The notes under the pieces are model-generated. The model was not told where the DNA came from, ran no database searches, and saw only the letters and a program-made list of their open reading frames with translations. A stretch of 11,227 nucleotides of DNA, taken from a virus. Taxonomy: Duplodnaviria > Heunggongvirae > Uroviricota > Caudoviricetes. A program made the position numbers and the translations under genes. Positions 5,478-10,590 of the stretch are shown here, one piece after another. Numbering within the stretch: position 1 is the first letter of the stretch; each line of letters starts with the position of its first letter. Location: IMG/VR virus record IMGVR_UViG_2913157538_000006. One strand, given 5' to 3'.

Positions 5478-5822
5478 TTGATTCTCGATAGACACATAAC
5501 ATCCAGGGGTTATGTTTGTATGCGTCCCGCGACTATCGCCCCATTAACGCCATACGATAAATGGGATGGTGAGAAATGGGTGACGGATACCGAGGCACAG
5601 CATAGCGTCGCAGTAGATGCAGCAGAAGCACAGCGCCAGTCGCTGATTGATACTGCAATGGCTTCCATTAGTCTGATTCAACTGAAATTACAGGCTGGGC
5701 GGAAGCTGATGCAGGCAGAGACCTCCCGACTTAACACTGTGCTGGATTACATTGACGCGGTGACGGCAACAGATACCAGCACCGCGCCGGATGTCATCTG
5801 GCCTGAACTGCCGGAGGAGTAG
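5478..5822 (+). pseudogene. tfaS: Tail fibre assembly protein fragment (C-terminal part only)
   Basis: The C-terminal roughly 90 aa (... PLTPYDKWDGEKW ... LDYIDAVTATDTSTAPDVIWPELPEE) resemble the C-terminal half of phage Tfa/gpU-type proteins and parallel the C-terminus of the convergent yfdK product (DTSSAPDIEWPTPP). The expected N-terminal motif (MxYxYSATTN) is absent. Confidence 0.72.
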
Positions 5823-6234
5823 GCCATTCAATATCTGGCGCACTGGAAGTATCGACCAGCTCCAGTGCGTCCAGATAATCCAGCCACAAATTATATTGCG
5901 CCAGTTCCTCACCTTTCAGACGACCAATAGCCGCTTTACCAGCCCATTGTTTACTGTTCATATAATCGTTGGCCTGATTAATCAATTGCTGCTTTTTCAG
6001 TTCGGCTGCAGCAATCTGTTCCTCATGTGTTGGTGGTGGAATTTCAGACCATGCAGGAAAACCATTTTCTCCAGCGATACGGATTTTTCCTTTCGGCGGT
6101 AATCCGGAAAACTCAATATACACTTGCTCATCAACTTCAACAGCATCATCTGGCCATGAGCCAGCTTGCGTGTAATCCTCTTTCATCTCCAAGGGATAGA
6201 AAGAGTTTGTAGTCGCGGAATATATGTAATTCAT
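5794..6234 (-). CDS. yfdK: Tail fibre assembly protein (Tfa/gpU family)
   Basis: 146 aa, beginning MNYIYSATTNSFYPLEMKEDYTQAGSWPDDAVEV, with GGAG about 7 nt upstream of the ATG at 6234. Lies directly downstream of the tail-fibre fragment on the same strand. Confidence 0.88.
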   Translation of the reverse strand: MNYIYSATTNSFYPLEMKEDYTQAGSWPDDAVEVDEQVYIEFSGLPPKGKIRIAGENGFPAWSEIPPPTHEEQIAAAELKKQQLINQANDYMNSKQWAGKAAIGRLKGEELAQYNLWLDYLDALELVDTSSAPDIEWPTPPAVQAR

Positions 6235-6260: not shown

Positions 6261-6779
6261 TTAACACCCTAATGCGAAAAATGAAGCACCGATACCGGGT
6301 ACGCCTGCTCTGGAAATAAATTTCACCGGGTCCTGGTTATAACCGGCACAAGCTATATAGCCAACATTTGCACTGCCGGGAGTGTAATCCTGAGTCGCAA
6401 ATACCCGCAGACATCTATTCGGAAATGCAATCGGAAAATAGGTTACTGTGTCCTGAGACGTCAGCGGAACATCAATTGGCCCCCATTGAATAATTAAACC
6501 GGATGGCAATTTTTGATATCCAGGAACTGAAGCAGAAAGCATAAAACTACCCATATCAGGTATCTGATTCGCCCCTGTCCCTACATTTCTTTTAGCCGCT
6601 TCTCCCAAACCAAGGTTTTCGAGAGCCTTTTGCACCGTGCCGTCCAATTTGATATCGCCAAACGGATTCTTGCGGCTTAACAGCAGCGCACGAAGCGCGG
6701 TAAGCAGCTGGTCATGCCGCCCCTTCTCCAGGCTGGCACCGGAGGCCTCCACAACGCTGCAAAGCTCCTCCTGCAACAT
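6261..6779 (-). pseudogene. yfdL: Tail fibre protein C-terminal (receptor-binding) fragment
   Basis: 172 aa from an internal Met. The same frame is open further upstream to 6983 with no plausible RBS at 6779, so this is the 3' end of a once larger gene. It is followed by a tfa gene, as in Mu S-U, P2 H-G and e14 stf-tfa pairs. Confidence 0.68.
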
Positions 6780-6828
6780 GTCAAAGTAGTCATCATCCAG
6801 ATCGGTGGCAGGCGTGCCGGTCTGGGGG

Positions 6829-7104
6829 TTACCACGGGTACGGGGGATTACCAAAGGCAGCACCTTTAAGCTCCGCAAGACGTTCTGACCAGTCATGCGC
6901 CAGCGCGTTGTCTTCCGCAGTGTAATACGCGGCACATTTGGCGTTATCACCATCAGTAAACAGATCCAGAACAAACGGGCCAAACAGGGTGTTAATTCCC
7001 CAGAAAATGTTGTCCGGCGTGCGCCACTGATCGCCCACTTCCTTCAGTTCATGGGCTGGTTTGTTCCGCAGCTCCACCAGCGCCTGGCAATATTTATTAC
7101 TCAT
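6829..7104 (-). pseudogene. yfdM: Phage Dam-type N6-adenine DNA methyltransferase, N-terminal fragment truncated just after the NPPY motif
   Basis: Product ends ... [12 protein letters not shown] then stop. NPPY is the catalytic motif IV of N6-adenine methyltransferases, which normally sits mid-protein. Start taken at the Met whose ATG overlaps the yfdN stop (TAATG at 7102-7106); the ORF track extends to an upstream start at 7137. Confidence 0.72.
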
Positions 7105-7598
7105 TAAGCCCCCACGTAATTCCCTGAGAGATACCACTCTTCACCTGATGCAGCCCGCTTACTGCTTTTCCGTAAACACCGTTCACGACGCGCCAGAAAA
7201 TTGTTTCGTTCTGGCTGGGAGTGGCTTTCACGGAATGCCGCCATCCACACCGTTGCAGCACGACGGTATAAGCCCCTGGACTCCAGTTCTTCCGCCTGGC
7301 GGGTCAGGCACAAAATCACCCGCGGGTCGTTAGTGCCGACATAGAAATTGCGCACAGGTCTGGTTTCACGAACTGGTTGTGGTTCCGGATCCTGCGCTCT
7401 CTCAGTCAGGCGCGGGAAATGTCTGTGTGTATCTCCTTCACAACGGTGAGCCACACGCCCACTCTGACGTAACTTGCTTGCTGACTGCAGAACGCGCTGC
7501 CGTGAGTAACCTGCAAAAGCATCCGCAATGTCTCCGGAAGTACAGCCCGGATGGGCTTCAATGAATTTCTGAACGTCATTCAAAAGACTCATGCTCAC
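7104..7598 (-). CDS. yfdN: Hypothetical prophage protein with a PerC-like C-terminal region
   Basis: 164-aa ORF. The segment AEELESRGLYRRAATVWMAAFRESHSQPERNNFLARRERCL resembles the GLWRRAA..W core of PerC/Pch-type regulators as I recall it; this is unverified. Start is ambiguous: GTG at 7598 (AGGA 8 nt upstream) or ATG at 7592. Confidence 0.75.
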   Translation of the reverse strand: MSMSLLNDVQKFIEAHPGCTSGDIADAFAGYSRQRVLQSASKLRQSGRVAHRCEGDTHRHFPRLTERAQDPEPQPVRETRPVRNFYVGTNDPRVILCLTRQAEELESRGLYRRAATVWMAAFRESHSQPERNNFLARRERCLRKSSKRAASGEEWYLSGNYVGA

Positions 7599-7963
7599 CC
7601 CCTGAATCCTGCCGGGATCTGGCTGTAGTCCACATTGTCGTAACTGGCTTTGAAGTACGGGTCTTCGCGTTTTTCTGTGTACGTGCTGACGGACGGCGAT
7701 AAGCGCAGGGAAAGCTCATCCCATTTTTCCCGCAGCTTCGACGGGCTGAGCACGTTACGGCACCAGAACGGATCGCGGCTGACGCGGCTGTACATCTCGC
7801 AGATTTGTTTGTGAGTACGACCATCCTGCACACACATCAGGCGAATTTCGTTTGCCCAGGCTGTCCAGTTCGGTTCTTTGGGACGAACCACCTCGCCGTC
7901 ACATTCGGCGGCCTGCTCGTACAGGGCGATGATTTTTTTCCAGAGCCACTGTGCGCAGGTCAA
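7595..7963 (-). pseudogene. yfdO: Replication initiator (lambda O-like) C-terminal fragment; frame open upstream through the iteron array
   Basis: 122 codons from a TTG at 7963. The same frame has no stop between 8455 and 7598 and no ATG/GTG/TTG upstream of 7963. The O-like assignment is recalled annotation supported by the embedded iterons, not by a search. Confidence 0.65.
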
Positions 7964-8087
7964 ATCATCCTGCGTTCCCCACTGGCGCTTTTTAGGGCTG
8001 AATACAACCGCATCAGGATGGCGAGTTAAAAAATCCTGTTCATCCGTCTGCGTGTCCGGTTGCGAAGCGTCCGGACGAGAAGGTTTT

Positions 8088-8240
8088 TTATCTGACGGAT
8101 CATGTTTTGATTTTACTGACGGATCCCCGCCAGATTCTGACGGGTGAAAACCCGATTTTTTGCCAGATTTCGACGCATCAAATTTTGACGGGTCAGATTT
8201 TGATGCGTCAGATTTTGACGGGTCAGAGTCTGACAGTTGA
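8088..8240. repeat. Iteron-like direct repeat array (about 8 copies, 15-bp period)
   Basis: Five tandem 15-mers at 8166-8240 (GATTTCGACGCATCA, AATTTTGACGGGTCA, GATTTTGATGCGTCA, GATTTTGACGGGTCA, GAGTCTGACAGTTGA), preceded by three more copies with TGACGG cores at 8093, 8117 and 8138. Confidence 0.75.
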
Positions 8241-8320
8241 GAAAATGCCGCTGCCTGAAGCTTCGCAACGTTAAGCTGATAAACATTCGACGCATTGCGG
8301 TTATGATGAGGAGCAGCAAA

Positions 8321-8683
8321 ATGGCTAGCGAACGCAGTACTGATGTGCAGGCATTTATCGGGGAGCTGGACGGCGGCGTATTTGAAACCAAAATCGGCGC
8401 AGTTCTCAGTGAAGTCGCTTCCGGTGTGATGAACACGAAAACCAAAGGTAAGGTCTCACTCAACCTGGAAATCGAACCATTTGATGAGAACCGTCTGAAA
8501 ATCAAACACAAACTCTCATATGTTCGCCCGACTAACCGTGGGAAAATTTCCGAAGAAGACACCACCGAAACGCCGATGTATGTCAATCGCGGTGGTCGCC
8601 TGACTATTCTGCAGGAAGACCAGGGACAATTACTGACTCTTGCCGGTGAGCCTGACGGAAAACTCCGCGCAGCAGGTCATTAA
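8321..8683 (+). CDS. yfdP: Hypothetical prophage protein
   Basis: 120 aa from the ATG at 8321, with GAGGAG 8 nt upstream. The ORF track starts at an upstream alternative start (8237) that lacks an RBS. No recognisable motif. Confidence 0.75.
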   Translation: MASERSTDVQAFIGELDGGVFETKIGAVLSEVASGVMNTKTKGKVSLNLEIEPFDENRLKIKHKLSYVRPTNRGKISEEDTTETPMYVNRGGRLTILQEDQGQLLTLAGEPDGKLRAAGH

Positions 8684-8748
8684 TATCATTCTTAATTAAC
8701 TAATTATTTATCTCATCACTGAATATCTTAATATAGTGAGGACTTATT

Positions 8749-9573
8749 ATGTCTCAGAACTTAGACGCAACCGCAATTAATCAAATCCATGCCCTTATTT
8801 CTGCTCAGGGTGTTAATGAAATTATCAGTAAGATTGGTGCCGATGCTGTGGCATTGCCTGAGAATTTCCGCATTCATGATCTGGAAAAATTTAATTTAAA
8901 TCGCTTCCGTTTCCGTGGTGCGCTTTCCACTGCCAGCATCGATGACTTTACCCGTTATTCTAAAGATCTTGCAGATGAAGGCACCCGCTGCTTTATCGAT
9001 GCTGATAATATGCGTGCCGTCAGTGTGCTTAACCTGGGTACTATTGATGAACCAGGTCACGCAGATAACACCGCCACTCTCAAACTGAAAAAGACAGCAC
9101 CGTTCTCTGCCCTGTTGTCTGTTAACGGCGAGCGTAACTCCCAGAAATCACTGGCAGAATGGATTGAAGACTGGGCCGACTACCTTGTGGGCTTTGATGC
9201 TAATGGTGACGCCATTCAGGCAACAAAAGCGGCTGCGGCAATCCGTAAAATCACGATTGAAGCAAACCAGACCGCTGATTTTGAAGATAATGACTTCAGC
9301 GGCAAACGCTCCCTGATGGAATCTGTCGAAGCGAAGACCAAAGACATTATGCCAGTGGCATTTGAATTTAAATGCGTTCCGTTTGAAGGTCTGAAAGAAC
9401 GTCCGTTTAAATTACGCCTCAGCATTATCACTGGCGATCGTCCTGTACTGGTTCTGCGCATTATTCAGCTGGAAGCGGTGCAGGAAGATATGGCTAACGA
9501 ATTTCGTGATCTGCTTGTTGAGAAATTCAAAGACAGCAAAGTAGAAACCTTTATTGGTACTTTCACCGCCTGA
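8749..9573 (+). CDS. yfdQ: Hypothetical prophage protein (YfdQ-like; family name recalled as DUF2303, unverified)
   Basis: 274-aa ORF with good coding character and GTGAGGA about 7 nt upstream of the ATG. No catalytic motif recognised. Confidence 0.85.
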
Positions 9574-9700: not shown

Positions 9701-10237
9701 ATGTCATTTATTAAAACTTTTTCCGGGAAGCATTTTTATTATGACAAGATAAATAAAGACGACATCGTGATTAACGATATCGCGGTTTCCCTTTCAAATA
9801 TCTGCCGCTTTGCCGGTCATCTTTCTCACTTCTACAGTGTCGCCCAACATGCGGTGCTTTGCAGCCAGCTGGTGCCGCAGGAATTTGCTTTTGAAGCATT
9901 AATGCATGATGCAACAGAAGCGTATTGCCAGGACATCCCCGCACCACTGAAACGCCTTCTTCCTGACTATAAACGGATGGAAGAAAAAATAGATGCAGTA
10001 ATCCGTGAGAAATACGGGTTACCTCCTGTTATGAGCACGCCAGTGAAATATGCCGATCTCATTATGCTGGCAACCGAACGCCGTGATCTCGGGCTTGATG
10101 ATGGCTCTTTCTGGCCTGTACTGGAAGGCATCCCGGCAACAGAGATGTTCAACGTGATTCCACTGGCACCGGGTCATGCCTACGGGATGTTTATGGAACG
10201 TTTTAACGATTTATCGGAGTTACGCAAATGCGCATGA
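9701..10237 (+). CDS. yfdR: HD-domain phosphohydrolase (YfbR-like 5'-deoxynucleotidase family)
   Basis: 178 aa from the ATG at 9701 (GGAGA at 9691-9695). HD-domain signature residues are present: H in SVAQHAVL, HD in ALMHDATEAY, and a later D in YADLIMLATERRD. The ORF track starts 9 codons upstream at 9674. Confidence 0.85.
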   Translation: MSFIKTFSGKHFYYDKINKDDIVINDIAVSLSNICRFAGHLSHFYSVAQHAVLCSQLVPQEFAFEALMHDATEAYCQDIPAPLKRLLPDYKRMEEKIDAVIREKYGLPPVMSTPVKYADLIMLATERRDLGLDDGSFWPVLEGIPATEMFNVIPLAPGHAYGMFMERFNDLSELRKCA

Positions 10238-10590
10238 ATGTTTTCGAAATGGAAGGGTTTCTTCGCGGGAAATGTGTACCGCGAGATCTGAAAGTGAACG
10301 AAACAAATGCTGAGTACCTGGTACGTAAATTCGACGCGCTTGAAGCTAAATGTGCGGCACTGGAAAACAAAATAATACCAGTGTCAGCTGAACTGCCACC
10401 AGCAAATGAAAGTGTTCTGTTATTTGATGCTAACGGAGAAGGCTGGCTGATTGGCTGGCGTTCTCTCTGGTACACCTGGGGACAAAAAGAAACCGGAGAA
10501 TGGCAGTGGACATTTCAGGTTGGGGACCTTGAAAACGTCAATATCACTCACTGGGCAGTAATGCCAAAAGCACCGGAGGCTGGAGCATAA
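10228..10590 (+). CDS. yfdS: Hypothetical prophage protein (C-terminal motif reminiscent of DUF551-type phage proteins)
   Basis: 120 aa with GGAG 8 nt upstream. Overlaps the yfdR 3' end by 10 nt. Ends ... NITHWAVMPKAPEAGA; the domain assignment is recalled, not searched. Confidence 0.82.
   Translation: MRMNVFEMEGFLRGKCVPRDLKVNETNAEYLVRKFDALEAKCAALENKIIPVSAELPPANESVLLFDANGEGWLIGWRSLWYTWGQKETGEWQWTFQVGDLENVNITHWAVMPKAPEAGA

Follow-up and report, generated by a model that had tools for sequence, protein, structure and literature searches.

In bacteriophage lambda and in Shiga toxin-encoding (Stx) phages, the origin of replication occupies the central part of the initiator gene O, with iterons followed by an AT-rich region (PMC7466680). 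We analysed a related arrangement in an 11,227-nucleotide stretch of DNA (IMG/VR record IMGVR_UViG_2913157538_000006, the whole of which is hereafter called the window), centred on the repeats found in the yfdO pseudogene. The 1.4 kb surrounding these repeats match Escherichia coli K-12 at 100% (megablast), and the annotated neighbourhood is that of the cryptic prophage CPS-53/KpLE1, with the gene order intS-yfdGHI ... yfdK-yfdL-yfdM-yfdN-(pseudogene)-yfdP-yfdQ-yfdR-yfdS-yfdT-torI. Our analyses indicate, with a probability that we estimate at about 0.85, that positions 8080-8238 of the window represent the relic replication origin of an SfII-like lambdoid phage, composed of iterons and an AT-rich tract and situated within the sequence that codes for the inter-domain linker of an O-like initiator. 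An earlier note, prepared from the sequence without database searches, had remarked that repeats embedded in the frame mirror lambdoid O genes, in which the iterons lie in the linker-coding part of the initiator gene; a downstream AT-rich tract was found besides these in-gene repeats. It is established that the initiator gene is truncated, that the repeats are inside the intact gene, that repeat motif and N-terminal domain co-vary and that the AT-rich tract is conserved.

The truncated initiator gene

The yfdO locus comprises the following elements.

7595-8302, minus strand: remnant of an O-like replication initiator, codons 79-313 and the stop codon (yfdO pseudogene; Prokaryotic Genome Annotation Pipeline (PGAP), PHROG 391 and intact alleles)
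8302-8303, no strand: deletion junction with a 2-nt TA microhomology, at which O codon 79 is joined 18 nt upstream of the yfdP ATG (nucleotide alignments)
7595-7963, minus strand: classical yfdO open reading frame (ORF) with a TTG start, 122 residues, which corresponds to the lambda-O-like C-terminal domain (ORF list and lambda O alignment)
8303-8455, minus strand: extension of the open frame, not initiator-derived and running antisense to yfdP from its ribosome-binding site through codon 45 (no counterpart in intact O)

The minus-strand frame is open from 8455 to 7598 (286 codons), between TGA codons at 8458-8456 and 7597-7595. None of its first 164 codons is a canonical start (ATG, GTG or TTG), the earliest being the TTG at 7963, which bears out the earlier description of a frame devoid of stops and of an upstream start. 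PGAP annotates 7595-8302 on this strand as a pseudogene, 'incomplete; missing N-terminus'. In a profile search for O-like initiators of the kind envisaged in the earlier note, the remnant matched PHROG 391, 'replication initiation O-like', with E=1.3e-95 over positions 79-298 of 298, and an intact 313-residue homologue matched the same profile from end to end (E=4e-135). This intact protein is 99.7% identical to gp41 of Shigella phage SfII, annotated as 'O protein family protein', whose gene is placed after cI-cro-cII, the slot of O in lambda.

The similarity to lambda O lies in the C-terminal domain. Residues 182-277 of the intact homologue align with residues 187-270 of lambda O (BLASTP, E=6e-26), sharing the conserved block WGT..DLT.A.W...PN...WAN.IRLM...DGR.H...C.....D.FW..NVLSP.KLR.KW, and a tblastn comparison of the yfdO ORF with lambda-type O genes gave 39% identity (E about 1e-17). 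The K-12 remnant thus retains the lambda-O-homologous C-terminal domain. The N-terminal domain of the intact homologue corresponds to Pfam HTH_36 (residues 23-70), with weaker GntR, MarR, PaaX and DnaD_N matches. Lambda O matches PF04492 (Phage_rep_O) at E=6e-36, whereas the intact SfII-type protein showed no match to that family in the Pfam search and was recognized instead by HTH_36 and MarR/GntR-like models; the lambda-type N-terminal domain implied by the initial analogy with lambdoid O genes is therefore not that of this family. A marginal alignment to MarR structures (E=0.008) would assign the K-12 break, between G78 and N79, to the wing loop of this winged-helix fold. The N-terminal DNA-binding domain is absent from the K-12 gene, codons 1-78 being deleted, and the K-12 element is a relic, not a working O-type initiator. 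An NCBIfam search of the remnant returned nothing, and the identification required the PHROGs and the intact homologues. The single sub-threshold Pfam match of the 286-residue conceptual translation, to Ndc80, was judged spurious, and an Rfam scan of the whole window detected no RNA family.

To map the breakpoint, the window was compared by megablast with 5,426 complete E. coli genomes. In hundreds of these the match ends at 8303, and in others it begins at 8302. In an O157:H7 prophage, the left-hand match runs on into the intact gene for the 313-residue protein WP_000104949.1, and an intact O-like initiator gene is present in about 1,575 of the 5,426 genomes (about 29%). The K-12 sequence follows the WP_000104949.1 gene from codon 79 (NRNASNVYQL...), upstream of which it switches to the yfdP ribosome-binding-site region, and the translation preceding NRNASNVYQL has no counterpart in the intact O protein. 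As judged from the alignments, the initiator-derived part of the frame is limited to 7598-8302, i.e., 235 codons. Chance explains why no stop interrupts the 51 codons at 8303-8455, an unremarkable event given its estimated probability of (61/64)^51, or about 0.09. Attribution of the entire 286-codon frame to the initiator, as first proposed, consequently holds for 7598-8302 and fails for the 51 codons antisense to yfdP. The similarity in length between that frame and lambda O (299 residues) is a coincidence, since these 51 codons are not O-derived and the true parent has 313 residues.

The intact prophage of E. coli strain 1912D004 (L088) is organized as int ... yfdS-yfdR-yfdQ-yfdP, followed by cI-cro-cII(ymfL)-DUF4222-O-yfdN-dam ... 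Q. Relative to it, K-12 lacks 2,861 bp, comprising the whole immunity region and O codons 1-78. The earlier note had correctly surmised that the N-terminal domain is lost and that yfdP occupies its place; the loss amounts to 78 codons, but it also extends to the immunity region of about 2.6 kb, which that account did not include. The remnant differs from intact alleles at just 6-10 of 709 nt, and the intactness of its frame is therefore uninformative on selection.

Iterons and AT-rich tract inside the initiator gene

Three features of the window make up the putative origin.

8164-8238, no strand: iteron array of five 15-bp units in register, with the near-palindromic gene-strand core TCARAATCTGA (repeat finding, autocorrelation and shuffles)
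8130-8147, no strand: spaced extra iteron copy, CACCCGTCAGAATCTGG on the gene strand (repeat finding and motif scan; homologous copy in relatives at codons about 133-143)
8080-8126, no strand: AT-rich tract with two GATC-containing half-repeats (8089-8102 and 8113-8126), a candidate DNA-unwinding element (GC profile and homologues)

With Tandem Repeats Finder, the stretch 8164-8227 showed a period of 15 bp (4.3 copies, 81% matches) and a super-period of 30 bp (88%). A repeat search returned five in-register copies at 8164-8238 and one more at 8116-8145, with further copies down to 8089. These results agree with the initial report of about eight repeats, five of them in 15-bp register, except that the array, first given as 8166-8240, is placed at 8164-8238. 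The 15-bp period was confirmed by the autocorrelation of 8050-8260, whose values for lags of 15, 30 and 45 were 0.47, 0.40 and 0.43, over a background of about 0.22. When up to two mismatches to the motif TGAYSCRTCARAAT were allowed, all matches in the 11-kb window fell in 8089-8229 bar one at 9907; with up to three mismatches, 26 matches were obtained versus 11.7 +/- 3.6 in shuffled sequences, and none of 200 shuffles reached 26. In the minus-strand frame the array translates as SDSDPSKSDASKSDPSKFDASKS, in line with the hydrophilic repeat noticed at the outset (DPSKS DASKS DPSKF DASKS). A terminator-like hairpin, CGGGTGAAAACCCG, followed by a T-run is present on the plus strand at 8141-8154, with its tail extending to 8164, between the iteron array and the spaced copy and oriented towards yfdP. 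It is probably not conserved, because the underlying peptide varies among homologues.

We collected 31 full-length homologues by scanning one genome per species, together with phage and E. coli records. All 24 homologues with a K-12-type N-terminal domain (at least 72 of 95 residues identical) carry 4-9 copies of the core GTCAAAATCTGAC, located at codons about 100-142 in 15-bp register. They represent about 15 genera, with members in Escherichia, Shigella, a Klebsiella phage, Pantoea, Citrobacter, Providencia, Enterobacter, Kosakonia, Buttiauxella, Yersinia, Rosenbergiella, Tatumella, Erwinia, Mangrovibacter, Scandinavium and Pseudescherichia. This core accompanies either a lambda-O-like C-terminal domain (9 genes) or an unrelated one (15 genes). 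By contrast, six genes that have the same lambda-O-like C-terminus (about 70-75% identical) and a diverged N-terminus (35-62 of 95 residues) harbour 0-1 copies of it; four of these six show a clear repeat family different from the K-12 core, e.g., TTGACCCCCCAA or TCAGCCTGCAC. Repeats of the GGTGCAGGAGA type occur in the EC13 variant, whose N-terminus is different again. According to these comparisons, the repeat motif goes with the N-terminal DNA-binding domain, irrespective of the C-terminal domain, which is the classical signature of a cognate initiator-iteron pair. In-gene repeats between both domains, at codons about 100-145, were found in K-12, O157, SfII, a Klebsiella phage and 20 more homologues. 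The conserved positions of the repeats form the palindrome TCAGA-N-TCTGA, and the four bases between cores vary, as shown by the position matrix. This pattern is a further argument for a function of the repeats as DNA, and so is the Ser codon usage in the repeat region.

Altogether, the locus fits the description, given in the earlier note, of an initiator gene that lost its start and N-terminal domain and kept its origin repeats and C-terminal domain. Both the PHROG 391 match and the lambda O alignment support it, and on the three points on which that description could have failed, the remnant resembles a replication initiator, the intact homologues of related prophages contain the repeats inside the gene, between both domains, and the repeats are conserved, in about 15 genera.

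The EC13 initiator (272 residues; E. coli EC13 prophage, L005:2895-3713) occupies the same genomic position as the K-12-type genes. Its N-terminus, linker repeats (about 21-24 bp spacing) and C-terminal domain all differ from theirs, and only the last ~24 residues, REDPYFKASYDNVDYSQIPAGFRG, are common. This extreme C-terminal tail overlaps the start of yfdN and behaves as a separate mosaic module.

Directly downstream of the repeats, the GC content drops to 0.30 at 8080-8119, the minimum of the gene. In about 20 of the 31 homologues, among them some with other iteron types, no 40-bp window has a lower GC content than the homologous tract, TCAGTAAAaTCAAaACatGATCCrTCAGATAAAAA, as would be expected of a shared unwinding element. 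GATC sites are found in the tract at 8098 and 8122; GATC enrichment, an origin hallmark, is absent, as there are just these two sites in the tract and the whole window is GATC-poor.

By analogy with lambda, dimers of the N-terminal domain would bind the palindromic TCAGA-N-TCTGA cores in the intact phage, the adjoining AT-rich tract would unwind and the lambda-O-like C-terminal domain would recruit the helicase. In CPS-53 of K-12, cI-cro-cII and the pR region were lost in a deletion of about 2.9 kb, along with codons 1-78 of the initiator gene, which encode the winged-helix domain. The origin would be left without its cognate initiator in cis and therefore could not fire. This dead origin would now serve, or at least be used, as an upstream activating site for the host regulator SrsR.

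Present-day regulation and alternative readings

SrsR (YgfI) is a LysR-type regulator whose highest peak in genomic SELEX (systematic evolution of ligands by exponential enrichment) lies in the "yfdO/yfdP spacer" (PMC9181523, 2022). In the same study, SrsR gave several complexes with this spacer in electrophoretic mobility shift assays (EMSA), and its DNase I footprint covered 66 bp with four 11-bp boxes, TCAaATTTTGa, TCAGATTTTGa (twice) and TCAGAgTcTGa. SrsR was also reported to activate yfdONMLK and yfdPQ, as determined by reverse transcription quantitative PCR, and to be linked to a hydrogen peroxide (H2O2)-tolerance phenotype. The region was treated there as an intergenic spacer, with no mention of iterons, of an origin or of the pseudogene frame. 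We mapped the published boxes (11-bp TCAGATTTTGC) to 8178-8188, 8193-8203, 8208-8218 and 8223-8233, where they coincide with iteron units; reverse-complemented, the SrsR box gives the conserved core of the iterons. The second function suggested in the earlier note, that of an operator for the divergent yfdO and yfdP units, thus has experimental support (PMC9181523). It is compatible with the relic origin rather than a rival to it, because the divergent arrangement exists only through the K-12 deletion.

Two features lie on the yfdP side of this arrangement.

8321-8683, plus strand: yfdP, first gene of the divergent early-left unit yfdPQ (annotation and match to the PHROG 204 profile, function unknown)
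8280-8307, plus strand: weak sigma-70-like consensus match, TAAACA-16-TATGAT (consensus scan, which is not evidence of function)

The latter is the sole sigma-70-like match near yfdP, and its -10 hexamer, TATGAT, is created across the deletion junction. Its relevance is doubtful because the predicted transcription start is downstream of the yfdP Shine-Dalgarno sequence.

It is conceivable, although we consider it less likely than not, that SrsR recognizes the conserved core of a phage origin iteron. As the array also occurs in the intact O genes of about 29% of complete E. coli genomes and of phage SfII, SrsR would then sit on live prophage origins and may couple replication or early-right transcription to stationary-phase or stress signals, in competition or cooperation with the N-terminal domain of the initiator, and in K-12 the site would have been exapted into an activating site for stress-protective prophage genes.

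A number of points weigh against the relic origin and its use by SrsR. No P-like helicase loader follows the initiator gene, and as YfdN is PerC-like, the recruitment of the helicase is unexplained. With just about 70% AT, the AT-rich tract is a modest example of its kind. The support that the iterons draw from Ser codons, which are TCA or TCT in 88% of cases within codons 98-128 versus 41% elsewhere in the same genes, the test region having been set by coordinates only, is overstated by the Fisher p value (1e-35), as the repeat units are related by duplication. In the searchable literature, we found no experiment on origin activity or initiator binding for the SfII-type O family. A consensus promoter scan found no minus-strand promoter for yfdO. 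Regarding SrsR, the evidence comes from one laboratory (PMC9181523), another group could not confirm the control of a different listed target, fucAO (PMC11011485), and a chromatin immunoprecipitation-exonuclease (ChIP-exo) study of YgfI makes no mention of the yfdO/yfdP site.

With respect to the loader, no recognizable P, DnaB or DnaC homologue is encoded between O and Q in SfII. The product of yfdN (7104-7598 in the window; gp42 in SfII, L003:5445-5930) is a PerC/ANR-like regulator, the N-terminal half of which is uncharacterised (PHROG 23071). Its candidacy as a P-like loader was rejected, as it has no similarity to lambda P.

Among the other explanations for the array, the one that fares best, although we deem it unlikely, is that of an origin decoy retained because it titrates the initiator of superinfecting or co-resident SfII-like phages and thereby protects the host. 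Lambda origin copies at ectopic sites block lambda growth (PMC4488673), a related phenotype has been described (PMC3349717), and the K-12 array is just 1 nt away from functional alleles. However, a single chromosomal copy would be a weak titrator, and the lambda experiments made use of multicopy plasmids. With about 99% identity between the remnant and live alleles, moreover, no time-tested retention can be claimed.

It is still less probable that the repeats are primarily a host SrsR operator, evolved for the divergent yfdO and yfdP units and unrelated to replication. This would account for the footprint, the EMSA complexes and the expression effects (PMC9181523), as well as for the coincidence between the SrsR boxes and the array. 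Nevertheless, the same array, with 1 nt difference, is inside the intact O genes of about 1,575 E. coli genomes and of phage SfII, where it is coding sequence downstream of pR and not a divergent promoter region; its core, conserved across about 15 genera, goes with the type of initiator N-terminal domain, and the divergent arrangement arose only through the deletion in K-12. The use of the site by SrsR would therefore be secondary, by exaptation or fortuitous affinity.

Lastly, we find it highly improbable that the repeats merely encode a flexible hydrophilic linker (DPSKS/DASKS), with selection acting on the protein and no role for the DNA, since, even though the linker is of low complexity and all 132 of 132 units are multiples of three in the same phase, the Ser codon choice is strongly fixed to TCA/TCT, the peptide varies while the DNA core is constant, it is the N-terminal DNA-binding domain, not the C-terminal one, with which the motif changes, the copy number ranges from 4 to 9, an AT-rich tract follows the repeats and the units are footprinted by a DNA-binding protein (PMC9181523).

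Prophage breakage and relation to known systems

The missing part of the initiator gene has a counterpart elsewhere in K-12. The e14 prophage holds O codons 1-78 (L087:6917-7150), which match intact alleles at 231-232 of 234 nt and continue in frame into a terminase fragment to form the YmfN/oweE-aaaE ORF of 455 residues (junction at L087:7150/7151). One O-like gene is thus split over two K-12 cryptic prophages, with codons 1-78 in e14 and codons 79-313 in CPS-53, and the breakpoints are within 1 nt of each other. At the nucleotide level, e14 keeps the sequence up to ...CGCCAGGGT and CPS-53 that from (T)AACCGCAATG... onwards. In the coordinates of the intact strain 1912D004 prophage (L088), e14 shares 6280-9150 and CPS-53 lacks 6289-9149, so that one complements the other exactly. 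There are 282 genomes with the e14 junction and 360 with that of CPS-53, mostly K-12 derivatives; among natural chicken isolates, BS-01 has the e14 junction and BS-04 that of CPS-53. A third, independent truncation is present in E. coli strain 38 (NZ_CP048376.1, L092:3001-3157), in which O ends at ...CAGGGTAAC, 3 nt from the K-12 breakpoints, and forms an in-frame fusion of 1,047 residues with a tail-fibre gene.

The occurrence of three junctions with different partners within 4 nt suggests a hot spot of recurrent breakage or illegitimate recombination at GGGTAACC, a site located about 65 bp upstream of the first iteron. A single cut-and-paste of the segment from ymfH to O codon 78 from CPS-53 to e14, suggested by this complementarity, was also considered and rejected, as we could construct no parsimonious mechanism for it and the third junction, in strain 38, favours recurrent breakage. 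The two prophages also have in common tail-fibre and tail-fibre-assembly sequences that are 88-94% identical and in inverted orientation on the chromosome (window positions 5532-5971 and 6591-6840 versus e14 L087:11114-11554 and 10310-10559), which are potential substrates for e14/CPS-53 recombination. CPS-53 has a second deletion junction, at 6837/6838, where homology to the intact prophages ends inside the methyltransferase gene dam, of which yfdM keeps only the first ~89 codons, joined to the tail-fibre gene yfdL; the Q, lysis, head and tail genes are therefore gone.

That yfdO is an O-family pseudogene was already on record, as were the SrsR boxes. What is apparently new is the equation of these boxes with the origin iterons of an SfII-type initiator family that is widespread and has a non-lambda N-terminal domain, together with the anatomy of the origin. 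The strongest in-vitro SrsR target of the K-12 genome would thereby be explained as a dead phage origin in a pseudogene and not as an ordinary intergenic operator. This changes the reading of the SrsR box and leads to the prediction that SrsR also binds the functional origins of prophages from a very common family. A defined, testable origin can moreover be proposed for SfII/SfV-like phages devoid of a P-type loader, consisting of a 15-bp iteron with the core TCAGA-N-TCTGA and an AT-rich tract. The K-12 locus would also be a clean example of a replication element re-used for transcription after prophage decay, and the three clustered truncation junctions just upstream of the iterons hint at a site-specific fragility that shapes this decay.

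The closest relatives of the remnant are SfII gp41 and WP_000104949.1 of O157:H7 prophages, which are 99-99.7% identical to it over codons 79-313. They share with K-12 the iteron array and the neighbours yfdN/PerC and dam but, unlike the K-12 gene, are intact (313 residues), preceded by cI-cro-cII and presumably functional.

As in the lambda origin, the putative SfII-type origin is in the middle of the initiator gene and encodes the linker between the C-terminal domain and an N-terminal domain to which iteron binding is ascribed here by analogy, and the C-terminal domain is homologous to that of lambda O (E=6e-26). In contrast with lambda O, the N-terminal domain is of the HTH_36/MarR-like type and not Phage_rep_O. 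The iterons of lambda are four in number and about 19 bp long, and variants of the Stx-phage origin have six, whereas those of K-12 are 15-bp units arranged head to tail, in five plus about three copies. Unlike in lambda, no P gene follows the initiator, and the K-12 copy is truncated and dead. Iteron-type plasmid origins similarly combine a winged-helix initiator with tandem direct repeats and an adjoining AT-rich tract, the DNA-unwinding element, a likeness that we consider only as a lead. To our knowledge, plasmid iterons are intergenic, whereas SfII-type iterons are part of the coding sequence of the initiator.

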